32,000 nucleotides of DNA, from positions 390,001 through 422,000 of the forward strand of contig NC_000964.3 in the NCBI RefSeq assembly GCF_000009045.1, written 5' to 3'. Position 1 is the stretch's first letter; each line of letters opens with the position of its first letter. The notes below the pieces were generated by a model. It did not search any database. It was not told where the DNA came from and saw only the letters and a list, made by a program, of their open reading frames with translations. This DNA comes from Bacillus subtilis subsp. subtilis str. 168 (GTDB taxonomy: Bacteria > Bacillota > Bacilli > Bacillales > Bacillaceae). Of the stretch, positions 1 to 20,669 are shown piece by piece. Both the position numbers and the translations under genes were made by a program.

Positions 1-3000
1 GCCCGACAGAAAACACGACGTTTTCAACCAGTTTTCTGATCGACCGCGAGTATGGCGGCTCTATCCCAATCGGGAAGCCGATCGGAAATTCCACTGCCTA
101 TATTATGGATGAGCAGCAATGCCTGCAGCCAATCGGCGCGCCTGGTGAGCTTTGCGTAGGCGGAATCGGTGTAGCGCGTGGGTATGTCAATCTCCCTGAG
201 CTGACGGAGAAGCAATTTCTGGAAGACCCGTTCAGACCGGGTGAGAGAATTTACCGCACTGGTGACTTGGCAAGATGGCTGCCGGACGGCAATATCGAAT
301 TTTTAGGCAGAATCGACAACCAAGTGAAGGTGCGCGGCTTCCGAATTGAGCTTGGCGAAATTGAAACAAAACTGAACATGGCTGAGCATGTGACAGAAGC
401 CGCGGTGATCATACGCAAGAACAAAGCAGACGAAAATGAAATTTGCGCGTACTTCACGGCGGATCGTGAAGTGGCTGTGAGTGAGCTGAGAAAAACACTG
501 TCTCAGTCTTTGCCTGACTATATGGTCCCTGCCCACCTGATTCAAATGGACAGCCTGCCGCTCACGCCAAACGGGAAAATCAACAAAAAGGAACTGCCTG
601 CACCGCAATCAGAAGCCGTGCAGCCGGAATACGCAGCACCAAAAACAGAGAGTGAAAAGAAATTAGCGGAGATCTGGGAAGGAATACTCGGCGTCAAAGC
701 AGGCGTTACCGATAACTTCTTTATGATCGGCGGCCATTCTTTGAAAGCGATGATGATGACGGCGAAAATTCAAGAGCATTTTCATAAGGAAGTTCCGATA
801 AAAGTGCTTTTTGAAAAGCCGACTATTCAAGAACTGGCACTGTATTTGGAAGAGAACGAAAGCAAGGAGGAGCAGACGTTTGAACCGATCAGGCAAGCAT
901 CTTATCAGCAGCATTATCCTGTATCCCCGGCCCAGCGGAGAATGTATATCCTCAATCAGCTTGGACAAGCAAACACAAGCTACAACGTCCCCGCTGTACT
1001 TCTGCTGGAGGGAGAAGTAGATAAAGACCGGCTTGAAAACGCGATTCAGCAATTAATCAACCGGCACGAAATCCTCCGTACATCGTTTGACATGATCGAC
1101 GGAGAGGTTGTGCAAACCGTTCATAAAAACATATCGTTCCAGCTGGAGGCTGCCAAGGGACGGGAAGAAGACGCGGAAGAGATAATCAAAGCATTTGTTC
1201 AGCCGTTTGAATTAAACCGCGCGCCGCTCGTCCGTTCGAAGCTTGTCCAGCTGGAAGAAAAACGCCACCTGCTGCTCATTGATATGCATCATATTATTAC
1301 TGACGGAAGTTCAACAGGCATTCTAATCGGTGATCTTGCCAAAATATATCAAGGCGCAGATCTGGAACTGCCACAAATTCACTATAAAGATTACGCAGTT
1401 TGGCACAAAGAACAAACTAATTATCAAAAAGATGAGGAATACTGGCTCGATGTCTTTAAAGGCGAACTGCCAATACTGGATCTTCCCGCGGATTTCGAGC
1501 GGCCAGCTGAACGGAGCTTTGCGGGAGAGCGCGTGATGTTTGGGCTTGATAAGCAAATCACGGCTCAAATCAAATCGCTCATGGCAGAAACAGATACGAC
1601 AATGTACATGTTTTTGCTGGCGGCGTTCAATGTACTCCTTTCCAAGTACGCGTCACAGGATGATATCATTGTCGGCTCGCCGACAGCTGGCAGAACACAT
1701 CCTGATCTGCAAGGTGTGCCGGGTATGTTTGTCAACACGGTGGCACTCAGAACGGCACCAGCGGGAGATAAAACCTTCGCGCAATTCCTTGAAGAGGTCA
1801 AAACAGCCAGCCTTCAAGCATTCGAGCACCAGAGCTATCCGCTTGAGGAGCTGATTGAAAAGCTTCCGCTTACAAGGGATACAAGCAGAAGTCCGCTGTT
1901 CAGCGTGATGTTCAACATGCAGAATATGGAGATTCCTTCATTAAGATTAGGAGATTTGAAGATTTCCTCGTATTCCATGCTTCATCATGTTGCGAAATTT
2001 GATCTTTCCTTGGAAGCGGTCGAGCGTGAAGAGGATATCGGCCTAAGCTTTGACTATGCGACTGCCTTGTTTAAGGACGAGACGATCCGCCGCTGGAGCC
2101 GCCACTTTGTCAATATCATCAAAGCGGCCGCGGCTAATCCGAACGTTCGGCTGTCTGATGTAGATCTGCTTTCATCTGCAGAAACGGCTGCTTTGCTAGA
2201 AGAAAGACATATGACTCAAATTACCGAAGCAACCTTTGCAGCACTTTTTGAAAAACAGGCCCAGCAAACACCTGACCATTCTGCGGTGAAGGCTGGCGGA
2301 AATCTGTTGACCTATCGCGAGCTTGATGAACAGGCGAACCAGCTGGCGCATCATCTTCGTGCCCAAGGGGCAGGAAATGAAGACATCGTCGCGATTGTTA
2401 TGGACCGGTCAGCTGAAGTCATGGTATCCATTCTCGGTGTCATGAAGGCGGGGGCAGCTTTCCTTCCGATTGATCCTGATACACCTGAAGAACGAATCCG
2501 TTATTCATTAGAGGACAGCGGAGCAAAATTTGCGGTCGTGAATGAAAGAAACATGACGGCTATTGGGCAATATGAAGGGATAATTGTCAGCCTTGATGAC
2601 GGTAAATGGAGAAATGAAAGCAAGGAGCGCCCATCATCCATTTCCGGGTCTCGCAATCTTGCATACGTCATTTATACGTCCGGTACGACCGGAAAGCCAA
2701 AGGGCGTGCAGATTGAGCATCGTAATCTGACAAACTATGTCTCTTGGTTTAGTGAAGAGGCGGGCCTGACGGAAAATGATAAGACTGTATTGCTTTCATC
2801 TTACGCATTTGACCTTGGCTATACGAGCATGTTCCCTGTACTTCTGGGCGGGGGCGAGCTCCATATCGTCCAGAAGGAAACCTATACGGCGCCGGATGAA
2901 ATAGCGCACTATATCAAGGAGCATGGGATCACTTATATCAAGCTGACACCGTCTCTGTTCCATACAATAGTGAACACCGCCAGTTTTGCAAAAGATGCGA

Positions 3001-6000
3001 ACTTTGAATCCTTGCGCTTGATCGTCTTGGGAGGAGAAAAAATCATCCCGACTGATGTTATCGCCTTCCGTAAGATGTATGGACATACCGAATTTATCAA
3101 TCACTACGGCCCGACAGAAGCAACGATCGGCGCCATCGCCGGGCGGGTTGATCTGTATGAGCCGGATGCATTTGCGAAACGCCCGACAATCGGACGCCCG
3201 ATTGCGAATGCCGGTGCGCTTGTCTTAAATGAAGCATTGAAGCTTGTGCCGCCTGGAGCGAGCGGACAGCTCTATATCACGGGACAGGGGCTCGCGAGAG
3301 GGTATCTCAACAGGCCTCAGCTGACAGCCGAGAGATTTGTAGAAAATCCATATTCGCCGGGAAGCCTCATGTACAAAACCGGAGATGTCGTACGAAGACT
3401 TTCTGACGGTACGCTTGCATTTATCGGCCGGGCTGATGATCAGGTGAAAATCCGAGGCTACCGCATTGAGCCGAAAGAAATTGAAACGGTCATGCTCAGC
3501 CTCAGCGGAATTCAAGAAGCGGTTGTACTAGCGGTTTCCGAGGGCGGTCTTCAAGAGCTTTGCGCGTATTATACGTCGGATCAAGATATTGAAAAAGCAG
3601 AGCTCCGGTACCAGCTTTCCCTAACACTGCCGTCTCATATGATTCCTGCTTTCTTTGTGCAGGTTGACGCGATTCCGCTGACGGCAAACGGAAAAACCGA
3701 CAGAAACGCTCTGCCGAAGCCTAACGCGGCACAATCCGGAGGCAAGGCCTTGGCCGCACCGGAGACAGCGCTTGAAGAAAGTTTATGCCGCATTTGGCAG
3801 AAAACGCTTGGCATAGAAGCCATCGGCATTGATGACAATTTTTTCGATTTAGGCGGCCATTCATTAAAAGGGATGATGCTGATTGCCAACATTCAGGCGG
3901 AATTGGAGAAAAGCGTACCGCTTAAAGCACTGTTCGAGCAGCCGACAGTTCGCCAGCTGGCGGCTTATATGGAGGCGTCTGCTGTTTCAGGCGGCCATCA
4001 AGTACTCAAACCGGCTGACAAGCAGGATATGTATCCATTGTCATCCGCACAGAAACGAATGTACGTGCTCAATCAGCTTGACCGCCAGACGATAAGCTAC
4101 AACATGCCATCTGTTCTTCTAATGGAAGGAGAGCTTGATATTTCGCGCCTGCGCGACTCACTCAATCAGCTTGTGAACCGTCACGAATCATTGCGGACGT
4201 CATTTATGGAAGCTAATGGTGAGCCTGTTCAGCGCATCATTGAGAAGGCGGAGGTTGATCTTCATGTGTTTGAAGCCAAAGAAGACGAAGCGGACCAAAA
4301 GATTAAGGAATTTATCCGGCCATTCGACTTAAACGACGCACCGCTCATTCGCGCAGCTTTGCTTCGAATAGAAGCGAAAAAACATTTGCTGCTTTTAGAT
4401 ATGCATCATATCATCGCAGACGGCGTCTCAAGAGGCATCTTTGTAAAAGAATTGGCGCTGCTTTACAAAGGAGAGCAGCTTCCGGAGCCGACGCTTCATT
4501 ATAAAGATTTCGCCGTTTGGCAAAATGAAGCTGAGCAAAAAGAACGGATGAAGGAGCATGAGGCGTACTGGATGTCAGTTCTTTCAGGCGAGCTGCCAGA
4601 GCTTGATCTCCCGCTCGATTATGCCCGTCCGCCTGTGCAAAGCTTTAAAGGAGATACGATCCGTTTCCGTACGGGAAGTGAGACGGCAAAGGCGGTAGAA
4701 AAACTGCTTGCCGAAACCGGAACGACCTTGCACATGGTGCTCCATGCTGTTTTCCACGTCTTTTTAAGCAAAATTTCCGGACAGCGGGATATCGTCATCG
4801 GCTCCGTTACTGCCGGCCGGACGAATGCTGATGTTCAGGACATGCCGGGAATGTTCGTCAATACACTTGCCCTGAGAATGGAAGCGAAAGAACAGCAAAC
4901 ATTTGCGGAGCTTTTGGAGCTAGCAAAGCAGACGAACCTGTCAGCCCTTGAGCATCAGGAGTATCCGTTTGAAGATCTGGTTAATCAGCTTGATCTCCCT
5001 CGGGATATGAGCCGAAACCCATTGTTTAATGTGATGGTGACGACAGAAAACCCTGATAAAGAACAGCTTACATTGCAAAATCTGAGCATTTCACCTTATG
5101 AGGCTCATCAGGGAACTTCTAAGTTTGATCTGACACTGGGCGGATTTACTGATGAAAATGGCATTGGCTTGCAGCTCGAATATGCGACAGATCTGTTCGC
5201 AAAAGAAACAGCTGAAAAATGGAGCGAATACGTTCTGCGGCTACTAAAGGCTGTTGCGGATAACCCGAACCAGCCGCTTTCCAGTCTGTTACTGGTCACC
5301 GAGACAGAAAAGCAAGCGCTTCTTGAGGCATGGAAGGGCAAAGCGCTGCCTGTGCCGACAGACAAAACGGTTCATCAGCTATTCGAAGAGACTGTCCAGC
5401 GCCACAAAGACCGCCCGGCTGTCACATACAACGGCCAATCTTGGACGTACGGCGAGCTGAACGCGAAGGCAAACCGCCTCGCCCGGATTCTGATGGACTG
5501 CGGCATCAGCCCGGATGACCGCGTCGGCGTTCTCACGAAGCCGTCGCTTGAAATGTCCGCCGCGGTGCTCGGCGTCTTGAAAGCCGGAGCGGCGTTTGTG
5601 CCGATTGATCCTGACTACCCGGATCAGCGGATTGAGTATATTTTACAGGACAGCGGCGCGAAGCTTCTCTTGAAACAGGAAGGCATTTCAGTGCCGGACA
5701 GCTATACGGGAGATGTCATTCTTCTCGACGGAAGCCGCACGATTCTAAGCCTGCCGCTTGATGAAAACGACGAGGGAAATCCAGAAACCGCTGTAACCGC
5801 GGAGAACTTGGCGTACATGATTTACACGTCTGGAACGACCGGACAGCCGAAGGGTGTCATGGTCGAGCACCATGCGCTTGTGAACCTGTGCTTCTGGCAC
5901 CACGACGCGTTCAGCATGACAGCGGAGGACCGCAGTGCGAAGTACGCGGGCTTCGGGTTCGACGCTTCCATTTGGGAGATGTTCCCGACCTGGACGATCG

Positions 6001-8495
6001 GCGCTGAACTTCACGTCATTGATGAAGCGATCCGCCTCGATATCGTCCGCCTGAACGATTATTTTGAAACGAACGGCGTAACGATCACGTTCCTGCCGAC
6101 ACAGCTTGCGGAACAGTTCATGGAGCTTGAGAACACATCACTTCGCGTCCTCTTGACCGGAGGAGACAAGCTGAAGCGGGCAGTGAAAAAGCCGTACACA
6201 CTCGTCAACAACTACGGGCCGACAGAAAATACGGTCGTTGCCACAAGCGCAGAAATCCATCCGGAGGAAGGCTCGCTTTCCATCGGACGGGCCATTGCCA
6301 ATACGAGAGTATACATTCTCGGCGAGGGCAATCAGGTGCAGCCGGAAGGCGTAGCCGGAGAGCTTTGCGTGGCGGGGCGCGGACTGGCACGAGGCTATCT
6401 GAATCGAGAAGACGAAACCGCGAAGCGGTTTGTCGCTGATCCGTTTGTGCCGGGTGAACGCATGTACCGCACCGGCGACTTGGTGAAGTGGGTGAACGGC
6501 GGCATCGAATACATCGGCCGGATCGACCAGCAGGTCAAGGTCCGCGGCTACCGGATCGAGCTCTCAGAAATTGAAGTCCAGCTCGCCCAGCTTTCTGAGG
6601 TGCAGGATGCGGCGGTGACAGCTGTCAAAGATAAAGGCGGCAATACAGCGATCGCGGCGTATGTCACACCGGAAACAGCTGACATAGAAGCACTAAAATC
6701 AACACTAAAGGAAACCCTGCCGGATTACATGATCCCGGCGTTCTGGGTGACGCTGAACGAGCTTCCGGTTACGGCAAACGGCAAAGTCGACCGCAAAGCC
6801 TTGCCTGAGCCGGACATCGAAGCGGGAAGCGGAGAATACAAAGCGCCGACGACCGACATGGAAGAGCTGCTTGCCGGCATCTGGCAGGACGTGCTTGGAA
6901 TGTCTGAAGTCGGTGTCACCGACAATTTCTTCTCGCTTGGCGGAGATTCCATCAAAGGAATTCAAATGGCGAGCCGCTTGAATCAGCACGGCTGGAAGCT
7001 GGAAATGAAAGATCTCTTCCAGCATCCGACGATCGAAGAGCTCACCCAGTACGTAGAGCGTGCCGAAGGCAAACAGGCAGACCAAGGCCCGGTGGAGGGC
7101 GAAGTCATCCTGACGCCGATCCAGCGCTGGTTCTTTGAAAAGAACTTCACGAACAAGCACCACTGGAACCAATCGGTGATGCTTCACGCCAAAAAGGGCT
7201 TTGATCCTGAACGGGTGGAGAAAACATTGCAGGCGCTGATCGAGCATCATGACGCGCTCCGCATGGTCTACCGCGAGGAAAACGGGGACATCGTTCAGGT
7301 GTATAAACCGATCGGTGAGAGCAAGGTCAGCTTCGAAATCGTGGATCTGTACGGCTCCGATGAAGAGATGCTGAGAAGCCAGATTAAGCTTCTCGCGAAC
7401 AAGCTGCAAAGCAGTCTCGATCTGCGAAACGGGCCGCTTTTAAAGGCGGAGCAATATCGCACAGAAGCTGGGGATCACCTGCTCATTGCTGTACACCATC
7501 TCGTGGTCGACGGTGTGTCATGGCGGATTTTGCTTGAAGACTTTGCTTCAGGCTACATGCAGGCTGAGAAAGAAGAGAGCCTTGTCTTCCCGCAAAAAAC
7601 AAACTCCTTCAAGGATTGGGCGGAAGAACTGGCGGCATTCAGCCAATCAGCGCATCTTTTACAGCAGGCTGAATACTGGTCGCAAATTGCCGCTGAACAG
7701 GTTTCTCCTTTACCTAAGGATTGTGAAACAGAGCAGCGGATCGTCAAGGATACATCATCTGTCCTATGTGAATTAACGGCAGAAGACACTAAGCATCTTT
7801 TAACAGATGTTCATCAGCCATATGGAACTGAAATCAACGATATTCTTCTCAGCGCGCTCGGTTTGACAATGAAAGAATGGACAAAGGGGGCCAAAATTGG
7901 CATTAACCTTGAGGGACACGGCCGGGAGGACATTATCCCGAATGTGAATATCTCCAGAACGGTCGGCTGGTTTACGGCACAATACCCTGTTGTGCTCGAC
8001 ATATCTGACGCAGATGCCTCAGCTGTGATCAAAACAGTCAAAGAAAACCTGCGCCGCATTCCGGACAAAGGTGTTGGCTACGGCATTCTTCGTTATTTCA
8101 CAGAAACAGCGGAAACAAAGGGCTTCACACCGGAGATCAGCTTCAACTATTTGGGCCAATTCGACAGTGAAGTCAAAACCGATTTCTTTGAACCGTCCGC
8201 TTTCGATATGGGGCGCCAAGTAAGCGGAGAATCAGAGGCGCTGTACGCATTAAGCTTCAGCGGCATGATCAGAAACGGCCGGTTTGTGCTTTCCTGCTCC
8301 TACAATGAGAAGGAGTTTGAAAGAGCTACAGTCGAGGAGCAAATGGAACGGTTTAAAGAAAACCTCCTGATGCTAATCCGCCATTGCACGGAAAAAGAAG
8401 ACAAGGAATTCACACCAAGCGACTTCAGCGCCGAAGACCTTGAAATGGACGAGATGGGAGATATCTTTGACATGCTTGAGGAGAATTTAAAATAA
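1..8495 (+). CDS. srfAB: Surfactin non-ribosomal peptide synthetase subunit 2, 5'-truncated by the window edge (end of A-T | C-A-T | C-A-T-E)
   Basis: The frame is open from nt 3 (PTENTTFSTSFLIDREYGGSIPIGKPIGN..., upstream of the track's first Met at 105) to TAA 8493-8495. NRPS core motifs occur in order: GGHSL 729-743, HHIITDG 1287-1307, AYVIYTSGTTGKPKG 2661-2705, GGHSL 3852-3866, HHIIADG 4404-4424, AYMIYTSGTTGQPKG 5811-5855, GGDSI 6939-6953, HHLVVDG 7494-7514. It is followed by a 1275-aa C-A-T-TE protein and a type II thioesterase, as in the B. subtilis srfA operon. Confidence 0.97.
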   Translation, partial: PTENTTFSTSFLIDREYGGSIPIGKPIGNSTAYIMDEQQCLQPIGAPGELCVGGIGVARGYVNLPELTEKQFLEDPFRPGERIYRTGDLARWLPDGNIEFLGRIDNQVKVRGFRIELGEIETKLNMAEHVTEAAVIIRKNKADENEICAYFTADREVAVSELRKTLSQSLPDYMVPAHLIQMDSLPLTPNGKINKKELPAPQSEAVQPEYAAPKTESEKKLAEIWEGILGVKAGVTDNFFMIGGHSLKAMMMTAKIQEHFHKEVPIKVLFEKPTIQELALYLEENESKEEQTFEPIRQASYQQHYPVSPAQRRMYILNQLGQANTSYNVPAVLLLEGEVDKDRLENAIQQLINRHEILRTSFDMIDGEVVQTVHKNISFQLEAAKGREEDAEEIIKAFVQPFELNRAPLVRSKLVQLEEKRHLLLIDMHHIITDGSSTGILIGDLAKIYQGADLELPQIHYKDYAVWHKEQTNYQKDEEYWLDVFKGELPILDLPADFERPAERSFAGERVMFGLDKQITAQIKSLMAETDTTMYMFLLAAFNVLLSKYASQDDIIVGSPTAGRTHPDLQGVPGMFVNTVALRTAPAGDKTFAQFLEEVKTASLQAFEHQSYPLEELIEKLPLTRDTSRSPLFSVMFNMQNMEIPSLRLGDLKISSYSMLHHVAKFDLSLEAVEREEDIGLSFDYATALFKDETIRRWSRHFVNIIKAAAANPNVRLSDVDLLSSAETAALLEERHMTQITEATFAALFEKQAQQTPDHSAVKAGGNLLTYRELDEQANQLAHHLRAQGAGNEDIVAIVMDRSAEVMVSILGVMKAGAAFLPIDPDTPEERIRYSLEDSGAKFAVVNERNMTAIGQYEGIIVSLDDGKWRNESKERPSSISGSRNLAYVIYTSGTTGKPKGVQIEHRNLTNYVSWFSEEAGLTENDKTVLLSSYAFDLGYTSMFPVLLGGGELHIVQKETYTAPDEIAHYIKEHGITYIKLTPSLFHTIVNTASFAKDANFESLRLIVLGGEKIIPTDVIAFRKMYGHTEFINHYGPTEATIGAIAGRVDLYEPDAFAKRPTIGRPIANAGALVLNEALKLVPPGASGQLYITGQGLARGYLNRPQLTAERFVENPYSPGSLMYKTGDVVRRLSDGTLAFIGRADDQVKIRGYRIEPKEIETVMLSLSGIQEAVVLAVSEGGLQELCAYYTSDQDIEKAELRYQLSLTLPSHMIPAFFVQVDAIPLTANGKTDRNALPKPNAAQSGGKALAAPETALEESLCRIWQKTLGIEAIGIDDNFFDLGGHSLKGMMLIANIQAELEKSVPLKALFEQPTVRQLAAYMEASAVSGGHQVLKPADKQDMYPLSSAQKRMYVLNQLDRQTISYNMPSVLLMEGELDISRLRDSLNQLVNRHESLRTSFMEANGEPVQRIIEKAEVDLHVFEAKEDEADQKIKEFIRPFDLNDAPLIRAALLRIEAKKHLLLLDMHHIIADGVSRGIFVKELALLYKGEQLPEPTLHYKDFAVWQNEAEQKERMKEHEAYWMSVLSGELPELDLPLDYARPPVQSFKGDTIRFRTGSETAKAVEKLLAETGTTLHMVLHAVFHVFLSKISGQRDIVIGSVTAGRTNADVQDMPGMFVNTLALRMEAKEQQTFAELLELAKQTNLSALEHQEYPFEDLVNQLDLPRDMSRNPLFNVMVTTENPDKEQLTLQNLSISPYEAHQGTSKFDLTLGGFTDENGIGLQLEYATDLFAKETAEKWSEYVLRLLKAVADNPNQPLSSLLLVTETEKQALLEAWKGKALPVPTDKTVHQLFEETVQRHKDRPAVTYNGQSWTYGELNAKANRLARILMDCGISPDDRVGVLTKPSLEMSAAVLGVLKAGAAFVPIDPDYPDQRIEYILQDSGAKLLLKQEGISVPDSYTGDVILLDGSRTILSLPLDENDEGNPETAVTAENLAYMIYTSGTTGQPKGVMVEHHALVNLCFWHHDAFSMTAEDRSAKYAGFGFDASIWEMFPTWTIGAELHVIDEAIRLDIVRLNDYFETNGVTITFLPTQLAEQFMELENTSLRVLLTGGDKLKRAVKKPYTLVNNYGPTENTVVATSAEIHPEEGSLSIGRAIANTRVYILGEGNQVQPEGVAGELCVAGRGLARGYLNREDETAKRFVADPFVPGERMYRTGDLVKWVNGGIEYIGRIDQQVKVRGYRIELSEIEVQLAQLSEVQDAAVTAVKDKGGNTAIAAYVTPETADIEALKSTLKETLPDYMIPAFWVTLNELPVTANGKVDRKALPEPDIEAGSGEYKAPTTDMEELLAGIWQDVLGMSEVGVTDNFFSLGGDSIKGIQMASRLNQHGWKLEMKDLFQHPTIEELTQYVERAEGKQADQGPVEGEVILTPIQRWFFEKNFTNKHHWNQSVMLHAKKGFDPERVEKTLQALIEHHDALRMVYREENGDIVQVYKPIGESKVSFEIVDLYGSDEEMLRSQIKLLANKLQSSLDLRNGPLLKAEQYRTEAGDHLLIAVHHLVVDGVSWRILLEDFASGYMQAEKEESLVFPQKTNSFKDWAEELAAFSQSAHLLQQAEYWSQIAAEQVSPLPKDCETEQRIVKDTSSVLCELTAEDTKHLLTDVHQPYGTEINDILLSALGLTMKEWTKGAKIGINLEGHGREDIIPNVNISRTVGWFTAQYPVVLDISDADASAVIKTVKENLRRIPDKGVGYGILRYFTETAETKGFTPEISFNYLGQFDSEVKTDFFEPSAFDMGRQVSGESEALYALSFSGMIRNGRFVLSCSYNEKEFERATVEEQMERFKENLLMLIRHCTEKEDKEFTPSDFSAEDLEMDEMGDIFDMLEENLK
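729..743 (+). other. Carrier (T/PCP) domain phosphopantetheine-attachment motif GGHSL (Ser codon 738-740), first module in window
   Basis: ggc ggc cat tct ttg, in the srfAB frame, within DNFFMIGGHSLKA. Confidence 0.9.
864..870 (+). promoter_or_regulatory. Shine-Dalgarno sequence of comS (AAGGAGG), embedded in srfAB coding sequence
   Basis: AAGGAGG lies 9 nt upstream of TTG 880. It is built from the srfAB codons AAG GAG GAG. Confidence 0.85.
880..1020 (+). CDS. comS: Competence regulator ComS (46 aa), overprinted in the +1 frame of srfAB
   Basis: TTG start at 880 after a consensus SD, 46 codons, TAG 1018-1020. Translation is MNRSGKHLISSIILYPRPSGECISSISLDKQTQATTSPLYFCWREK, which I recognise as ComS. 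The track shows it as the tail of ORF 811..1020, which merely extends to an upstream TTG with no SD. Confidence 0.93.
   Translation: MNRSGKHLISSIILYPRPSGECISSISLDKQTQATTSPLYFCWREK
1287..1307 (+). other. Condensation domain active-site motif HHxxxDG (HHIITDG)
   Basis: cat cat att att act gac gga, in the srfAB frame. Confidence 0.9.
2661..2705 (+). other. Adenylation domain core motif A3 (AYVIYTSGTTGKPKG)
   Basis: Translated in the srfAB frame. This is the canonical AMP-binding signature. Confidence 0.9.
3852..3866 (+). other. Carrier domain motif GGHSL (Ser codon 3861-3863)
   Basis: ggc ggc cat tca tta, within DNFFDLGGHSLKG. Confidence 0.9.
4404..4424 (+). other. Condensation domain motif HHxxxDG (HHIIADG)
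   Basis: cat cat atc atc gca gac ggc, in the srfAB frame. Confidence 0.9.
5811..5855 (+). other. Adenylation domain core motif A3 (AYMIYTSGTTGQPKG)
   Basis: Translated in the srfAB frame. Confidence 0.9.
6939..6953 (+). other. Carrier domain motif GGDSI (Ser codon 6948-6950), the variant typical of carriers that feed an epimerase
   Basis: ggc gga gat tcc atc, within DNFFSLGGDSIKG. It is followed by an epimerisation-type HHxxxDG domain. Confidence 0.88.
7494..7514 (+). other. Epimerisation domain motif HHxxxDG (HHLVVDG)
   Basis: cac cat ctc gtg gtc gac ggt. This is the terminal domain of srfAB, after the GGDSI carrier. Confidence 0.85.
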
Positions 8496-8531: not shown

Positions 8532-11500
8532 ATGAGTCAATTTAGCAAGGATCAGGTTCAAGATATGTATTACCTATCGCCGATGCAGGAAGGGATGCTT
8601 TTTCATGCCATCCTGAATCCCGGCCAAAGCTTTTACCTTGAACAAATCACGATGAAAGTAAAAGGCAGCTTGAATATCAAATGTCTTGAAGAAAGCATGA
8701 ATGTGATCATGGACCGGTACGATGTATTTCGTACCGTGTTCATTCACGAAAAAGTAAAAAGGCCTGTCCAAGTCGTATTGAAAAAACGGCAGTTCCATAT
8801 AGAAGAAATCGATCTGACACACTTAACGGGCAGCGAGCAAACAGCCAAAATCAATGAGTACAAAGAACAGGATAAGATCAGGGGTTTTGATTTGACGCGG
8901 GATATTCCGATGCGGGCAGCCATTTTCAAGAAAGCTGAAGAAAGCTTTGAATGGGTGTGGAGCTACCACCACATTATTTTGGACGGATGGTGCTTCGGCA
9001 TCGTCGTACAGGATCTATTTAAGGTATACAATGCTCTGCGCGAACAAAAGCCGTACAGCCTGCCGCCCGTCAAACCGTATAAAGACTACATCAAGTGGCT
9101 TGAAAAGCAGGATAAACAAGCATCACTGCGTTACTGGCGCGAATATTTAGAGGGCTTTGAAGGACAAACGACGTTTGCGGAGCAAAGAAAGAAACAAAAG
9201 GACGGCTATGAGCCGAAAGAGCTGCTCTTTTCACTGTCGGAGGCGGAAACAAAGGCCTTTACCGAGCTTGCAAAATCGCAGCATACCACTTTGAGTACGG
9301 CGCTGCAGGCAGTCTGGAGCGTATTGATCAGCCGCTATCAGCAGTCTGGCGATTTGGCCTTCGGTACAGTTGTTTCAGGGCGTCCCGCGGAAATCAAAGG
9401 CGTTGAACATATGGTCGGGCTGTTTATCAACGTTGTCCCGAGACGTGTGAAGCTGTCTGAGGGTATCACATTTAACGGCTTGCTCAAGCGGCTGCAGGAG
9501 CAATCGCTGCAGTCCGAGCCGCATCAATATGTGCCGCTTTATGACATCCAAAGCCAGGCCGATCAGCCGAAACTGATTGACCACATCATTGTTTTTGAGA
9601 ACTATCCGCTTCAGGATGCGAAAAATGAAGAAAGCAGTGAAAACGGCTTTGATATGGTGGATGTTCATGTTTTTGAGAAGTCGAATTATGATCTCAACCT
9701 GATGGCTTCCCCGGGAGATGAGATGCTGATTAAGCTTGCCTATAATGAGAATGTGTTTGATGAGGCGTTTATCCTGCGCTTGAAATCTCAGCTTCTTACA
9801 GCAATTCAGCAGCTCATCCAGAATCCTGATCAGCCTGTCAGCACGATCAACCTCGTTGACGACAGGGAGAGAGAATTTTTGCTAACCGGCTTAAACCCGC
9901 CGGCTCAAGCTCATGAAACAAAGCCTCTGACGTATTGGTTCAAGGAAGCAGTGAACGCCAATCCGGATGCACCGGCGCTTACGTATTCCGGCCAGACCCT
10001 GTCTTATCGCGAATTAGATGAGGAAGCGAACCGCATTGCACGCCGGCTGCAAAAACACGGTGCGGGCAAAGGCTCTGTTGTAGCGCTGTACACGAAGCGC
10101 TCACTTGAACTGGTGATCGGCATTCTCGGTGTATTAAAGGCGGGAGCAGCCTATCTGCCGGTTGATCCGAAGCTGCCAGAGGACCGAATCTCGTATATGC
10201 TGGCTGACAGTGCGGCAGCCTGTCTTCTGACGCATCAGGAGATGAAAGAACAAGCGGCTGAGCTGCCGTATACAGGCACAACGCTCTTCATTGATGATCA
10301 AACACGGTTTGAAGAACAGGCAAGCGATCCTGCAACCGCGATTGATCCTAATGATCCGGCATATATCATGTACACGTCCGGCACAACCGGAAAGCCAAAG
10401 GGCAATATCACCACTCATGCCAATATTCAAGGATTGGTCAAGCATGTAGACTACATGGCATTTTCTGATCAGGATACGTTCTTGTCTGTTTCGAATTACG
10501 CCTTTGATGCATTTACCTTTGATTTCTATGCTTCTATGCTGAATGCGGCACGGCTCATTATCGCAGATGAACATACGCTGCTTGATACAGAACGGCTCAC
10601 AGATCTGATCCTGCAAGAGAATGTCAATGTCATGTTTGCGACAACCGCACTATTTAATCTTCTCACAGATGCGGGAGAGGATTGGATGAAGGGGCTTCGC
10701 TGTATATTATTCGGCGGAGAGCGCGCGTCAGTGCCTCATGTCAGAAAAGCGCTGCGGATCATGGGGCCGGGCAAGCTGATTAACTGCTACGGGCCGACTG
10801 AGGGAACAGTGTTTGCGACAGCTCACGTCGTGCATGATCTGCCGGATTCCATCTCCTCATTGCCGATCGGAAAGCCGATCAGCAATGCCAGTGTTTATAT
10901 TCTGAATGAGCAAAGCCAGCTCCAGCCATTCGGGGCGGTCGGTGAACTGTGCATCAGCGGAATGGGCGTGTCAAAAGGGTATGTAAATCGTGCTGACCTC
11001 ACGAAGGAAAAGTTTATCGAGAACCCGTTCAAGCCGGGAGAAACGCTTTACCGTACAGGGGATTTAGCGCGCTGGCTGCCGGATGGAACGATTGAATACG
11101 CCGGCCGTATTGACGACCAGGTCAAAATACGCGGACACCGGATTGAGCTTGAAGAAATCGAAAAGCAGCTGCAGGAATACCCAGGTGTGAAAGATGCGGT
11201 CGTTGTGGCGGACCGCCATGAGTCTGGCGATGCATCAATCAATGCCTACCTTGTGAACCGAACGCAGCTTTCAGCTGAAGACGTGAAGGCGCACCTGAAA
11301 AAACAGCTTCCTGCTTACATGGTGCCGCAAACCTTTACCTTCTTGGATGAGCTTCCTTTAACGACGAACGGGAAAGTCAATAAACGGCTGCTCCCAAAAC
11401 CTGATCAGGATCAGCTGGCGGAAGAATGGATTGGACCGCGGAACGAGATGGAAGAAACAATCGCACAAATATGGTCTGAGGTTCTCGGCAGAAAGCAAAT

Positions 11501-12359
11501 TGGCATTCATGACGATTTCTTTGCGCTCGGAGGGCATTCCTTGAAGGCCATGACCGCCGCGTCCCGCATCAAGAAAGAGCTCGGGATTGATCTTCCAGTG
11601 AAGCTTTTGTTTGAAGCGCCGACGATCGCCGGCATTTCAGCGTATTTGAAAAACGGGGGCTCTGATGGCTTGCAGGATGTAACGATAATGAATCAGGATC
11701 AGGAGCAGATCATTTTCGCATTTCCGCCGGTTCTGGGCTATGGCCTTATGTACCAAAATCTGTCCAGCCGCTTGCCGTCATACAAGCTATGCGCCTTTGA
11801 TTTTATTGAGGAGGAAGACCGGCTTGACCGCTATGCGGATTTGATCCAGAAGCTGCAGCCGGAAGGGCCTTTAACATTGTTTGGATATTCAGCGGGATGC
11901 AGCCTGGCGTTTGAAGCTGCGAAAAAGCTTGAGGAACAAGGCCGTATTGTTCAGCGGATCATCATGGTGGATTCCTATAAAAAACAAGGTGTCAGTGATC
12001 TGGACGGACGCACGGTTGAAAGTGATGTCGAAGCGTTGATGAATGTCAATCGGGACAATGAAGCGCTCAACAGCGAAGCCGTCAAACACGGCCTCAAGCA
12101 AAAAACACATGCCTTTTACTCATACTACGTCAACCTGATCAGCACAGGCCAGGTGAAAGCAGATATTGATCTGTTGACTTCCGGCGCTGATTTTGACATG
12201 CCGGAATGGCTTGCATCATGGGAAGAAGCTACAACAGGTGTTTACCGTGTGAAAAGAGGCTTCGGAACACACGCAGAAATGCTGCAGGGCGAAACGCTAG
12301 ATAGGAATGCGGAGATTTTGCTCGAATTTCTTAATACACAAACCGTAACGGTTTCATAA
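8532..12359 (+). CDS. srfAC: Surfactin NRPS subunit 3 (C-A-T-TE termination module)
   Basis: 1275-aa ORF. Motifs are HHIILDG 8967-8987, AYIMYTSGTTGKPKG 10359-10403, GGHSL 11529-11543 and the thioesterase GYSAGC 11883-11900. The ATG lies 36 nt after the srfAB stop, with a purine-rich SD (aggcggga). Confidence 0.97.
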   Translation: MSQFSKDQVQDMYYLSPMQEGMLFHAILNPGQSFYLEQITMKVKGSLNIKCLEESMNVIMDRYDVFRTVFIHEKVKRPVQVVLKKRQFHIEEIDLTHLTGSEQTAKINEYKEQDKIRGFDLTRDIPMRAAIFKKAEESFEWVWSYHHIILDGWCFGIVVQDLFKVYNALREQKPYSLPPVKPYKDYIKWLEKQDKQASLRYWREYLEGFEGQTTFAEQRKKQKDGYEPKELLFSLSEAETKAFTELAKSQHTTLSTALQAVWSVLISRYQQSGDLAFGTVVSGRPAEIKGVEHMVGLFINVVPRRVKLSEGITFNGLLKRLQEQSLQSEPHQYVPLYDIQSQADQPKLIDHIIVFENYPLQDAKNEESSENGFDMVDVHVFEKSNYDLNLMASPGDEMLIKLAYNENVFDEAFILRLKSQLLTAIQQLIQNPDQPVSTINLVDDREREFLLTGLNPPAQAHETKPLTYWFKEAVNANPDAPALTYSGQTLSYRELDEEANRIARRLQKHGAGKGSVVALYTKRSLELVIGILGVLKAGAAYLPVDPKLPEDRISYMLADSAAACLLTHQEMKEQAAELPYTGTTLFIDDQTRFEEQASDPATAIDPNDPAYIMYTSGTTGKPKGNITTHANIQGLVKHVDYMAFSDQDTFLSVSNYAFDAFTFDFYASMLNAARLIIADEHTLLDTERLTDLILQENVNVMFATTALFNLLTDAGEDWMKGLRCILFGGERASVPHVRKALRIMGPGKLINCYGPTEGTVFATAHVVHDLPDSISSLPIGKPISNASVYILNEQSQLQPFGAVGELCISGMGVSKGYVNRADLTKEKFIENPFKPGETLYRTGDLARWLPDGTIEYAGRIDDQVKIRGHRIELEEIEKQLQEYPGVKDAVVVADRHESGDASINAYLVNRTQLSAEDVKAHLKKQLPAYMVPQTFTFLDELPLTTNGKVNKRLLPKPDQDQLAEEWIGPRNEMEETIAQIWSEVLGRKQIGIHDDFFALGGHSLKAMTAASRIKKELGIDLPVKLLFEAPTIAGISAYLKNGGSDGLQDVTIMNQDQEQIIFAFPPVLGYGLMYQNLSSRLPSYKLCAFDFIEEEDRLDRYADLIQKLQPEGPLTLFGYSAGCSLAFEAAKKLEEQGRIVQRIIMVDSYKKQGVSDLDGRTVESDVEALMNVNRDNEALNSEAVKHGLKQKTHAFYSYYVNLISTGQVKADIDLLTSGADFDMPEWLASWEEATTGVYRVKRGFGTHAEMLQGETLDRNAEILLEFLNTQTVTVS
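8967..8987 (+). other. Condensation domain motif HHIILDG
   Basis: cac cac att att ttg gac gga, in the srfAC frame. Confidence 0.9.
10359..10403 (+). other. Adenylation domain core motif A3 (AYIMYTSGTTGKPKG)
   Basis: Translated in the srfAC frame. Confidence 0.9.
11529..11543 (+). other. Carrier domain motif GGHSL (Ser codon 11538-11540)
   Basis: gga ggg cat tcc ttg, within DDFFALGGHSLKA. Confidence 0.9.
11883..11900 (+). other. Type I thioesterase nucleophile elbow GYSAGC (Ser codon 11889-11891)
   Basis: GxSxG motif in the C-terminal ~240 aa of SrfAC. Confidence 0.85.
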
Positions 12360-12387: not shown

Positions 12388-13116
12388 ATGAGCCAACTCT
12401 TCAAATCATTTGATGCGTCGGAAAAAACACAGCTCATCTGTTTTCCGTTTGCCGGCGGCTATTCGGCGTCGTTTCGCCCTCTCCATGCTTTTTTGCAGGG
12501 GGAGTGCGAGATGCTCGCTGCCGAGCCGCCGGGACACGGCACGAATCAAACGTCAGCCATTGAGGATCTCGAAGAGCTGACGGATTTGTACAAGCAAGAA
12601 CTGAACCTTCGCCCTGATCGGCCGTTTGTGCTGTTCGGACACAGTATGGGCGGAATGATCACCTTCAGGCTGGCGCAAAAGCTTGAGCGTGAAGGCATCT
12701 TTCCGCAGGCGGTTATCATTTCTGCAATCCAGCCGCCTCATATTCAGCGGAAGAAAGTGTCCCACCTGCCTGATGATCAGTTTCTCGATCATATTATCCA
12801 ATTAGGCGGAATGCCCGCAGAGCTTGTTGAAAATAAGGAGGTCATGTCCTTTTTCCTGCCTTCTTTCCGATCAGATTACCGGGCTCTTGAACAATTTGAG
12901 CTTTACGATCTGGCCCAGATCCAGTCGCCTGTTCATGTCTTTAACGGGCTTGATGATAAAAAATGCATACGAGATGCGGAAGGGTGGAAGAAGTGGGCAA
13001 AAGACATCACATTCCATCAATTTGACGGCGGGCACATGTTCCTGCTGTCACAAACGGAAGAAGTCGCAGAACGGATTTTTGCGATCTTGAATCAGCATCC
13101 GATCATTCAACCGTGA
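12388..13116 (+). CDS. srfAD: Type II (external, editing) thioesterase of the surfactin cluster
   Basis: 242-aa ORF with SD AAAGGAGGA upstream. It has the alpha/beta-hydrolase GHSMGG motif at 12637-12654, the FPFAGG N-terminus typical of type II TEs, and a late GGH motif. Confidence 0.95.
12637..12654 (+). other. SrfAD nucleophile motif GHSMGG (Ser codon 12643-12645)
   Basis: gga cac agt atg ggc gga, in the srfAD frame. Confidence 0.85.
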
Positions 13117-16130: not shown

Positions 16131-17465
16131 ATGGAGAAATATATGAGTCTATTAACGAGGATAGAGGAGATGATGCAAAGCACCTCATATCAAGAAGGAG
16201 ACAGGCTTCCATCTATCCGTCAGCTGTCCGCCCGCTACCAAGTCAGCAAAAGCACAGTGATCCGCGCGCTGCAGGAGCTGGAAAAGCGCCACCTTATCTA
16301 TTCTGTTCCGAAAAGCGGCTATTATATTGTGAAAAAGTCAGGGAAATCAAAAAGCGGGCAGCCTGGCCCCATCGACTTTGCCACATCTGCGCCGGATCCC
16401 GATGTGTTTCCGTATCTTGATTTTCAGCACTGCATCAACAAAGCGATTGATACATACAAAAACGATTTGTTTATTTATGGGACGCCAAAGGGGCTTCCAT
16501 CACTCATCCGCGTACTCCGAAAGCTCTTGGCCACTCAACAGGTATTTGCGGATGAACGGCATATTTTCATTACATCAGGTGTCCAGCAGGCGTTATCCTT
16601 GCTTTGTGCCATGCCGTTCCCAAATGGGAAAGAGAAGATCGCCATTGAACAGCCGGGCTACCATTTGATGGTCGAACAGCTTGAGACACTTGGGATTCCC
16701 GCCATCGGGGTGAAACGAACGGAAGAAGGGCTTGATATAGCCAAGGTTGAGCGGTTATTTCAAACAGAATCGATTAAATTTTTTTATACGATGCCGCGCT
16801 TCCATAACCCGCTTGGGTGCTCATTGTCAGAGCGTGATAAACAGGAGCTTGTGAGACTGGCAGAAGCGTATGATGTCTATCTCGTTGAGGATGATTACCT
16901 CGGTGATCTGGAGGAAAATAAAAAGGCAGATCCGCTGTACGCATATGATCTGTCCTCACATGTCATCTATTTGAAAAGCTTCTCGAAAATGATGTTCCCC
17001 GGCCTCCGCGTGGGGGCGGCTGTTTTGCCCGAAGCGCTGACTGACACGTTCTATGCGTACAAAAAGCTGAACGACATCGACTGTTCGATGATTTCTCAAG
17101 CGGCATTGGAGATTTACCTGAAAAGCGGTATGTACGGCAGGCATAAGGAGAAAATCAGAGATTCTTATAAAGAGCGGTCGCTGAGGCTACATCAAGCCAT
17201 TCGAACTCACAGGCAGCTGGGAAGCGGACGCTTTACGTTCTCCAGCGGGCAGGCACCCTGTATGCACACCCATCTGGTGCTTCCTCAGGATCTGCCCGCC
17301 TCAAGAGTGATTCATAGACTGGAAAAACAAGGGGTTCTCCTTGAGGCGATAGACCGTCATTATTTATCAGATTATCCGAAAGAAAATCTATTAAAAATCA
17401 ATATTTCCAATGTGAAAACGGAAGATATTGAGCGCGGTGTCAAGCTGTTGATGAGCCATTTATAA
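16131..17465 (+). CDS. ycxD: MocR/GabR-type regulator (GntR winged-helix N-domain fused to a fold-type I aminotransferase-like domain)
   Basis: 444-aa ORF. The N-terminus (GDRLPSIRQLSARYQVSKSTVIRALQELE) is a GntR HTH. The C-domain carries the PLP-lysine context YLKSFSKMMFPGLRVG. An alternative ATG is at 16143. Confidence 0.9.
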   Translation: MEKYMSLLTRIEEMMQSTSYQEGDRLPSIRQLSARYQVSKSTVIRALQELEKRHLIYSVPKSGYYIVKKSGKSKSGQPGPIDFATSAPDPDVFPYLDFQHCINKAIDTYKNDLFIYGTPKGLPSLIRVLRKLLATQQVFADERHIFITSGVQQALSLLCAMPFPNGKEKIAIEQPGYHLMVEQLETLGIPAIGVKRTEEGLDIAKVERLFQTESIKFFYTMPRFHNPLGCSLSERDKQELVRLAEAYDVYLVEDDYLGDLEENKKADPLYAYDLSSHVIYLKSFSKMMFPGLRVGAAVLPEALTDTFYAYKKLNDIDCSMISQAALEIYLKSGMYGRHKEKIRDSYKERSLRLHQAIRTHRQLGSGRFTFSSGQAPCMHTHLVLPQDLPASRVIHRLEKQGVLLEAIDRHYLSDYPKENLLKINISNVKTEDIERGVKLLMSHL

Positions 17466-18135
17466 AAGCTCTTCGTACGAGACCATTGTGATATCCTCGG
17501 GGAAATCAGGGTGTACGGCGCATACAGCCATTTTGTAGCCGGGATCGACCTCATACGTTTTGATATAGCATGGGGAATGGCTGTCCGGAAGCTCAATGGA
17601 TACTTGTCCGTCCTGGTGCAGGCGCACTGAAAAGGAATCAAGCGGAAGCGATAAGCCTTTGCCTTCCTTGTTTGATAAAGCTTTCTTTCATTGACCATAG
17701 ATGATAAAAATAGTCTGTCTGCTCGTCCTTGTCTTTTGCTAAAAGGTCGCTGTACTCTGTTTTTGAAAAGAAGCGCTTGGCGATCTCAAGGCTGATCGGT
17801 TTCGTTTTTTCGATATCTATGCCGATCGGCTGTGAATCAAACGCGCAAATGACCCAGCGTCCGGAGTGAGAAATGTTGAAATGAGCGTCGGGAAGATCAG
17901 GGATGCACGGCTTCCCGTATTCCTGCGTGCTAAAGCGGATATCGGATTTGTCCAACTGATACTGCCTGCTTATGACTGAGCGAACGAGCACATCTCCCAG
18001 CAGGGTGCGGTGAGCATCTTCTTTATGATAAAATCTCCGGCATTTCTCCCGTTTTTCAGGTGATATGAAAGACATGAACCGTTCATTTTCTTCCTGTGAA
18101 AGCGGGCGGTCCATATAAATTCCGTAAATCTTCAT
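17460..18135 (-). pseudogene. sfp: 4'-phosphopantetheinyl transferase Sfp, inactivated by a +1 frameshift (sfp0 allele)
   Basis: Frame 1 (18135 to 17638) gives MKIYGIYMDRPLSQEENERF...HLWSMKESFIKQ, then GRQRLIASA and a stop (165 aa). Shifting one base at about 17668-17669 continues as EGKGLSLPLDSFSVRLHQDGQVSIELPDSHSPCYIKTYEVDPGYKMAVCAVHPDFPEDITMVSYEELL, ending at TAA 17462-17460. The span is 676 nt, which is 225 codons plus one extra base. Confidence 0.93.
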
Positions 18136-18206
18136 TCTAGATCCTCCGTCTGCAAAAGATTGTCAAAACCATCCTATCATACTTCCACAAGACTCATATA
18201 GAGGAG

Positions 18207-18240
18207 AAAATAAAAAAACAAAGCCAAGGCGGCTTTGTTT
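18207..18240 (-). terminator. Intrinsic terminator of yczE
   Basis: Perfect 10-bp stem (18216-18225 / 18231-18240), 5-nt loop, then UUUUAUUUU on the minus strand (18207-18215). The stem foot touches the yczE stop codon. Confidence 0.8.
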
Positions 18241-18887
18241 TAGTGTACAGGCGGAGATGCTTTCACTGCGGCTGTCCGCCTTGCCACAGCATAATTCAGC
18301 AACTGGATTGACTGGGGCAATGAAAAACGCAAAATAAGTCCGGTGAGGATGGCGGTCAAAATGGTGCCAAAACCGATCGGTCCGCCCATGCCCCATGCCG
18401 CAAACAAAATGGTTAATTCCATGCCGTTCCGCACCCATTGCACATTCCAGCCGGTTTTTTCTGTAATCAGCATCATCAGTGAATCACGCGGCCCCGCGCC
18501 AAGGCCTGCTGATACATAAACACCGACGCCGTAACCAATCAGCACCACGCCTAGAGAGAAGACGATGATCGAGCCTGTGTAGGTCGAGAGGGCAGGCAGA
18601 ATGAAATTGAAAAAATCTATAAATACACCAATGAGCACCATATTCAGGAGGGCACCAATTTTCGGCCAAGCTCTCGTAAACAATGACGTGAATCCGACGA
18701 TGAGCGCTCCAATAATGATGGACCACTGGCCGACGGTAAGCCCGAAGTGCTGAAACAGGCTGTAATGAAATGCATCCCACGGACTAATGCCGAGTGCTTT
18801 TCCTTCTATCGTCAGGGATACACCAAAAGCCAAAATGATCAAACCGGCAAAATAAAATGTCCAGCGCAGAACAAGTTCTTGCTTCAC
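18240..18887 (-). CDS. yczE: Integral membrane protein (YczE family)
   Basis: 215-aa polytopic ORF with a GTG start at 18887 and a purine-rich SD (agaaggga). It is adjacent to sfp, as in Bacillus genomes. Confidence 0.85.
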   Translation of the reverse strand: MKQELVLRWTFYFAGLIILAFGVSLTIEGKALGISPWDAFHYSLFQHFGLTVGQWSIIIGALIVGFTSLFTRAWPKIGALLNMVLIGVFIDFFNFILPALSTYTGSIIVFSLGVVLIGYGVGVYVSAGLGAGPRDSLMMLITEKTGWNVQWVRNGMELTILFAAWGMGGPIGFGTILTAILTGLILRFSLPQSIQLLNYAVARRTAAVKASPPVH

Positions 18888-18970: not shown

Positions 18971-19004
18971 ACAAAAAAACAGGGCCGCCGGAGGCGCCCT
19001 GTTT
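18971..19004 (-). terminator. Strong intrinsic terminator (minus strand) just upstream of the yczE promoter
   Basis: GC-rich 13-bp stem with one bulge (18977-18989 / 18993-19004), loop GGA, followed on the minus strand by a U7 run (plus-strand A-run 18973-18979). Confidence 0.7.
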
Positions 19005-19207: not shown

Positions 19208-19951
19208 TTACAGCGGGTTCAAAATCCGGTTTAAGAACCGCTGTGTCCGTTCTTCTTTTGGTGCGGAGAAAATTTGCTCCGGCGGTCCCTGCTCCACGAT
19301 AACGCCGCCGTCGATGAAGATGACTTCATCCGCAACCTCCTGCGCGAACTTGATTTCGTGGGTCACGACGACCATGGTCCAGCCTTCATTGGCCAAGTCC
19401 TTGATAACCTTCAGCACCTCTCCGACAAGCTCGGGATCAAGCGCTGAGGTCGGTTCGTCAAACAGCATGAGCTCAGGCTGTATCGCCAGTGCGCGGGCGA
19501 TGCCGACGCGCTGCTGCTGGCCGCCGGAAAGCTGGAACGGATATAAATCCATTTTGTCCTTCAATCCGACTTTATCAAGAAGCTGAATCGCTTCTTTTCT
19601 GACTTCCTCTTTGTTCCGTTTTTGCACCTGAACAGGGCCCTCCATCACGTTTTCGAGGGCTGTGCGGTGCGGGAACAGGTGATACGCCTGAAACACCATT
19701 CCGGATTTTCGGCGAAGCTTTAGGATATCCGCCTGTTTCACCTTTTTGGAGAAATCGATGGAGAAATCATCAAATGCAAGCTCTCCGCGATTCGGGATCT
19801 CCAGAGCGTTCAGGCAGCGGAGCAGCGTCGTTTTCCCTGAACCTGAAGGCCCAAGTATGGCGATGACTTTTCCTTTTTCAATCTTCATATCTATCTTTTT
19901 TAAAATTTCATTTTCACCGAATGATTTGTTTAATCCTTTAACGGTAAGCAT
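19208..19951 (-). CDS. tcyC: Cystine ABC transporter ATP-binding protein
   Basis: Walker A GPSGSGKT, signature LSGGQQQR, Walker [13 protein letters not shown]. The ATG at 19951 (247 aa) is preceded by AAGGAGG. The track's 283-aa version begins at an upstream alternative codon inside tcyB. Confidence 0.93.
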
Positions 19952-19964
19952 ACTCGGAACCTCC

Positions 19965-20669
19965 TTATTTGGCCACGTAGCGGTCAAGACGCCGTTCGAT
20001 GACATGCTGGACGAGTGAGAGCAGGAAGCAGATAATCCAATAAATAAAGGCTGCTTCAATATAGATCACTAAAATTTGATCAAGATTCCGCGCGCCGATT
20101 TCCTGGGCTTTTCTGAACAGCTCAGCGACCAGAATTTGAGAGGCGAGGGATGTATCTTTAATCAGGCTGATAAAGGTATTGGATAATGGCGGGATCGACA
20201 CACGAAACGCCTGCGGCAAAATGACGCGGAACAGCGTTTTTTGATGTGTCATGCCAATTGTGTAGCCGGCTTCCCATTGCCCTTTCGGCACGGATAAAAT
20301 AGATGCCCGAATGATTTCAGATGCATAGGCGCCGACGTTTAATGAAAAGGCGATAACTGCGCTTGGAAATGGATCTAATGTGACGTTAAAGGCCGGGAAC
20401 AGATAGAAAATGATGAACAATTGAACGAGAAGAGGAGTGCCGCGTATTGCGGATACGTATACGCTGAACACCCATCTCAAAGGTCTCACTTTCGACATTC
20501 TGGCAAGCGCCGTAATCAGCGCCAGGATCATTCCGAATATAAAGGAAAGAATCGTAAGGGGAATCGTATAGTAGATTCCCCCTGAAAGTATCGGCCAGAA
20601 TGACTGCTGCACCAGATCCCACGGGATCGCCGTGCCAAGCGTCAATGCCGGCAGATTATTTAGAAACAT
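19965..20669 (-). CDS. tcyB: Cystine/polar amino-acid ABC transporter permease
   Basis: 234-aa, 5-TM ORF of the HisM/GlnP type with an EAA-like loop ([22 protein letters not shown]). It overlaps the tcyA stop by 14 nt. Its stop overlaps the tcyC SD. Confidence 0.92.

Follow-up and report, generated by a model that had tools for sequence, protein, structure and literature searches.

The window, which is the whole 32,000-nt stretch of Bacillus subtilis DNA that was analysed, opens within the surfactin synthetase genes. From base 3 onwards, frame 3 is open and covers the last 2,830 codons of srfAB, while about 750 further codons of this gene, together with srfAA, lie upstream of the window. The remaining part of srfAB is followed by srfAC, which was named after its database match, and by srfAD, both on the same strand (Table 1). 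Surfactin synthetase has seven carrier domains, four of which are within the window. In a first-pass annotation of this DNA, the serines of these four domains had been placed at 738, 3861, 6948 and 11538, and serine codons were indeed found there, in GGHSL or GGDSI motifs. The same annotation described the synthetase as fully intact. The part present in the window (the end of srfAB, srfAC and srfAD) is uninterrupted, but the wording goes beyond the window, as srfAA and the start of srfAB are outside it. The small gene comS lies inside srfAB, and its product, with Met for the TTG start, is identical to the database protein COMS_BACSU.

The interval between srfAD and sfp encodes an MFS transporter, a YcxB-like protein, an EamA transporter and the MocR-type regulator ycxD. 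The 3′ ends of ycxD, on the plus strand, and sfp, on the minus strand, overlap by 6 nt at 17460-17465, which leaves no space for a terminator between the two genes. On the other side of sfp, the ORF of a cystine ABC ATPase (19208-20059, minus strand) has a TTG start that overlaps the upstream permease (19965-20669, minus strand) by 95 nt. It is probable that the true start of the ATPase is an internal codon, since the gene called in related genomes encodes 247 aa rather than the 283 aa of the ORF.

Table 1. Features of the surfactin synthetase and sfp region, with positions counted from the first base of the window
Feature	Position	Strand	Remarks
srfAB, partial	3..8495	+	cut by the window start; frame 3; three PP-binding domains
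Carrier serine codon, srfAB module 1	738..740	+	GGHSL
comS	880..1020	+	46 codons, TTG start; inside srfAB, in another frame
Carrier serine codon, srfAB module 2	3861..3863	+	GGHSL
Carrier serine codon, srfAB module 3	6948..6950	+	GGDSI
srfAC	8532..12359	+	condensation, adenylation, carrier and thioesterase domains; 1,275 aa, unbroken
Carrier serine codon, srfAC	11538..11540	+	GGHSL
srfAD, type II thioesterase	12388..13116	+	242 aa; exact match to SRFAD_BACSU
ycxD, MocR/GntR-type regulator	16131..17465	+	convergent with sfp
sfp remainder	17460..17666	-	68 codons and TAA, unbroken, adjacent frame
sfp truncated ORF	17638..18135	-	165 codons and TGA; 156 true Sfp residues, then 9 out of frame
Premature stop TGA, codon 166 of sfp	17638..17640	-	read from the sequence
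Out-of-frame stretch GRQRLIASA (residues 157-165)	17641..17667	-	9 codons in place of the conserved EGKGLSLPL
Extra A, either A of CAAG	17668..17669	-	gene nt 467/468; T on the plus strand; ancestral CAG = Gln156
sfp ribosome-binding site GGAGGA	18142..18147	-	6 nt 5′ of the ATG at 18135, from the sequence
Hairpin with T run, terminator-like	18215..18241	-	3′ of yczE, upstream of sfp

The minus-strand ORF that starts at 18135 begins as a true Sfp. Its residues 1-156 aligned to the structures of PDB entries 1QR0 and 4MRT with an E value of about 4e-104, the only substitutions being S22T and C98G. The frame then continues into the nine-residue stretch GRQRLIASA, which displaces the family-invariant residues G158, G160 and L165 in the family alignment, and ends at the premature TGA. 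The lost part of the protein is still encoded in the adjacent frame, where the remainder reads EGKGLSLPLDSF...MVSYEELL and terminates at 17460. The whole sfp region spans 676 nt, that is, 225 codons and one base. Reading of the ORFs thus gave the same coordinates for the frame, its aberrant tail and its stop (17640-17638) as the first-pass annotation, which had also noted that the last 68 codons lie in the adjacent frame and had given the same total length. The consensus promoter scan upstream of sfp gave nothing convincing, and only the yczE terminator was found there.

To locate the extra base, for which the first-pass annotation had proposed a position at about 17668-17669, sfp loci were collected from 18 Bacillus species in a scan of species-representative genomes, B. 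subtilis itself not being among them. The window was aligned with the ten closest sister species out of these 18. All ten (10/10) have AAACAGGAAGG where the window has AAACAAGGAAGG, and therefore the change is a duplicated A that turned CAG into CAAG at Gln156, exactly at the proposed position. Further loci of B. subtilis with an intact sfp were fetched through exact-protein look-ups (L024-L048), and the extra A is missing from 25 of these 25. Alignment with intact sfp loci, which had been suggested as a check, hence identified the inserted base as an A within CAAG. Deletion in silico of any single base among 17666-17669 gave back the motif KQEGKGLS and a protein of 224 aa.

The repaired 224-aa protein aligned to 1QR0 over residues 1-224 (E value 7.5e-152) with three substitutions, S22T, C98G and V207A, the last being the only difference from the 1QR0 sequence within residues 157-224. 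Codon 207, at window position 17515, encodes Val in the Marburg/168 type and Ala in the PDB Sfp, in the poultry isolate BSP1 and in 5/5 other B. subtilis haplotypes that were translated; the residue sits in the last beta strand.

Two Pfam domains were found in the repaired protein, PF22624 at residues 14-98 and PF01648 at residues 103-205, the latter covering profile positions 1-111, and the gene also matched TIGR00556. In the ORF as it stands, PF22624 is complete and PF01648 (ACPS) is cut short, being matched at profile positions 1-59 of 111 only. Full-length members of the Sfp family have about 223-240 aa. Proteins of the Sfp type (group II) were taken to be those with AASDHPPT_N (PF22624) followed by a complete ACPS domain (PF01648), in a length of about 220-240 aa; the repaired frame falls among them and the truncated product does not. 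The gene is thus Sfp-type by descent, and its present product is not a complete member of the family. The truncated product is no equivalent of AcpS-type (group I) enzymes either. These share the PF01648 superfamily domain and the chemistry with Sfp, but they are single-domain trimers of about 120 aa acting on the fatty-acid ACP, whereas Sfp is a monomer of two half-domains acting on peptidyl carrier domains, and what remains here is the N-terminal half with only a part of the ACPS domain.

The metal-binding and catalytic residues G105-x-D107-x-E109 and W147..K150-E151..K155 are invariant in an alignment of 32 family members and all precede the frameshift, so that the truncated product keeps the motifs GIDIE (105-109) and WSMKESFIK (147-155). 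After the frameshift lie 7 of the 23 invariant columns of the same alignment, namely G158, G160, L161, L165, S167, F168 and C205. In the AlphaFold model of the repaired Sfp (pLDDT 95), residues 157-224 form strands at 169-172, 178-181, 190-194 and 200-206 and a helix at 220-223. The 165-aa product lacks the conserved EGKGLSLPLDSF segment and, from the second half-domain, these four beta strands and the helix at the end. We infer from this loss that the second half-domain most likely cannot fold into an active enzyme; the inactivity is also taken from the published work discussed below.

Comparison with other genomes placed the locus more closely. No base differs between the window and CP045672.1 across the 6,498 bp that have sfp at their centre, and that genome shows the same truncated ORF. 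When the A at 17669 is removed, the window equals CP015375.1, a genome with an intact 224-aa Sfp, in 6,675/6,675 bases, and the repaired Sfp is 100% identical to the Sfp of that genome. Other B. subtilis lineages showed 69-147 differences over the same span. B. subtilis proteins identical to both products have been deposited, the 165-aa form occurring on at least 1,000 contigs and the repaired 224-aa form on 761. Accessions of the truncated product include AGA22819.1, AHA76323.1, AIC38733.1 and AIC42965.1, the last three of which we take to be from PY79 and JH642-type strains. AGA22819.1 adjoins AGA22820.1, the YcxD of BSP1, and is by this numbering the BSP1 copy. SrfAC (AGG59694.1), YcxD (AGG59699.1) and an intact Sfp (AGG59700.1) belong to one accession series; therefore, the same synthetase protein adjoins an intact sfp in another genome.

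The locus thus combines a one-base insertion followed by an early stop, a truncated product identical to the deposited one, and the Marburg/168 flanking haplotype, which are the marks of sfp0. We conclude, with a probability of about 0.96, that we are dealing with sfp0 of the laboratory lineage of B. subtilis 168, in which one duplicated A inactivated the gene. The assignment to the 168 lineage is based on the identity with CP045672.1, on the single base that separates the window from CP015375.1 with its intact sfp, and on the literature. No difference was found from the sfp0 of 168, as the gene, its place downstream of srfA-ycxABCD, the one-base frameshift and the 165-aa product are all the same. 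Compared with the functional Sfp of 1QR0/4MRT and of intact B. subtilis genomes, the window differs by one extra A and its product lacks residues 157-224. The sfp0 signature of the domesticated 168, which the first-pass annotation had recognised, is therefore borne out by the genome identities and by published papers, and the frameshift itself is already known and already fully described.

It is very improbable that the window comes instead from a natural strain outside the 168 lineage that carries the same allele independently. Such a strain has a possible precedent in the poultry gut isolate BSP1 (CP003695.1), which has the same 165-aa product and a background about 1% diverged from the window. 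However, 69 differences in 6.5 kb separate the window from BSP1, as against none from CP045672.1 and one base from the sfp-intact CP015375.1. In addition, the SrfAC, YcxD, SrfAD and ComS proteins of the window exactly match those deposited for laboratory genomes of B. subtilis subsp. subtilis.

The BSP1 record nevertheless has the same extra A and an identical truncated Sfp, positions 3001-3676 of the retrieved locus (L023) corresponding to 17460-18135 of the window. As this record lies outside the 168 lineage, the allele is not strictly unique to 168-lineage records. BSP1 is an undomesticated poultry isolate, and its genome was assembled from reads of about 103 nt at 26-fold coverage (PMC3569322). 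Its nearest relative at this locus is CP045825.1 (L040), where sfp is intact. Across 6.7 kb the two differ only by two one-base insertions in BSP1, one extending a run of seven T to eight near 18980 and the other being the A at 17669. Swarming of BSP1 on 0.7% agar has been reported (PMC7642357), and surfactin is said to be needed for swarming (PMC12096827). The simplest reading is that the extra A in CP003695.1 is probably an indel artefact or a reference bias of the record. That the base is real in BSP1 seems unlikely to us; in that case sfp0 would have arisen twice at the same nucleotide, or laboratory 168 DNA would have entered a wild reference. Should a double origin be true, it would point to a mutational hotspot or to repeated selection for losing a costly public good.

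Between BSP1 and the window there is also a SNP-free tract of 736 bp (18251..17516). Import of this tract from 168 by recombination was considered and found unnecessary, as four loci with intact sfp (L039, L040, L043 and L046) share it SNP-free. A wild-type surfactin producer with the identical 676 nt had been named as the case that would contradict the sfp0 reading. The BSP1 record with its extra A does not amount to such a case, which would take a verified base and verified surfactin production in BSP1. As the public record of this "natural isolate" reference has the laboratory allele, it should be checked before it is used in comparisons of domestication.

We regard it as hardly conceivable that the extra base arose by error when the window was sequenced or assembled and that the real sfp is intact. 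Single-base indels are the commonest assembly error, and the BSP1 record with the same base may itself be such an error. Nonetheless, the identical truncated ORF was present in 1,245 collection blocks and, among independent assemblies, on at least 1,000 contigs, and the paper on the resequenced 168 genome explicitly keeps sfp as a pseudogene (PMC2885750). Moreover, several laboratories had to correct sfp in order to obtain surfactin (PMC11124408, PMC12096827, PMC6562014).

The chance that the frameshift is bypassed by +1 ribosomal frameshifting or transcriptional slippage, so that some full-length Sfp is made, is practically negligible: the complete C-terminal coding sequence that any bypass would need is intact in the adjacent frame, which also fits a very recent mutation, but sfp0 strains were reported to be surfactin-negative (PMC8573961, PMC12096827). 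The marks of a programmed ribosomal frameshift were not found, as the site AAACAAGG contains neither a homopolymer nor a slippery run and is not conserved in relatives. The extra base was seen in 0/10 sister species and in 0/25 B. subtilis loci with intact sfp, and since none of the relatives compared has it, the site is not a conserved recoding site.

For the sfp0 allele of 168, the following course of events is proposed. Duplication of one A would have changed the Gln156 codon from CAG to CAAG, leading to nine wrong residues and to a stop at codon 166. According to published work, Sfp uses CoA to turn apo carrier domains into holo ones. Without Sfp, the carrier serines of SrfAA, SrfAB and SrfAC would remain apo, and surfactin would not be made. 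Plipastatin, bacillibactin and bacillaene also depend on Sfp and, judging from the literature, would be lost too; for plipastatin, degQ is required as well. Translation of comS from the srfA mRNA, which takes place in another frame, should be untouched by the loss of sfp; the first-pass annotation had held that comS could still be expressed, and the intact comS within the window is consistent with this.

Published phenotypes agree with the predicted silence of the cluster for surfactin, which had also been claimed in the first-pass annotation. In 168, sfp is inactive through a frameshift and non-ribosomal peptides cannot be made (PMC8573961). The resequenced genome retains the gene as a pseudogene, and restoration of the frame yields surfactin (PMC2885750). 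Supernatants of sfp0 strains were without surfactin activity, which was regained with the sfp+ correction (PMC12096827), and surfactin was obtained from 168 only once the frameshift had been corrected (PMC6562014). [quoted passage not shown]

For annotation, the allele marks the window as belonging to an sfp0 (168-type) laboratory lineage. It would also explain how an apparently complete surfactin cluster can be silent in a strain whose comS, and with it competence, remains functional. In natural-product prediction from this DNA, surfactin, plipastatin, bacillibactin and bacillaene should be scored as not made unless sfp is repaired.

The extra base has been named differently in one of the papers, where it is called "T496" and where 747 mg/L of surfactin was reported after its removal (PMC11124408). 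Nucleotide 496 of the gene, at window position 17640, is the T with which the premature TGA begins, whereas the insertion placed by the alignment is an A that lies 28-29 nt upstream. A construct without T496 would regain the frame, yet it would keep GRQRLIASA at residues 157-165 in place of the invariant G158, G160 and L165.
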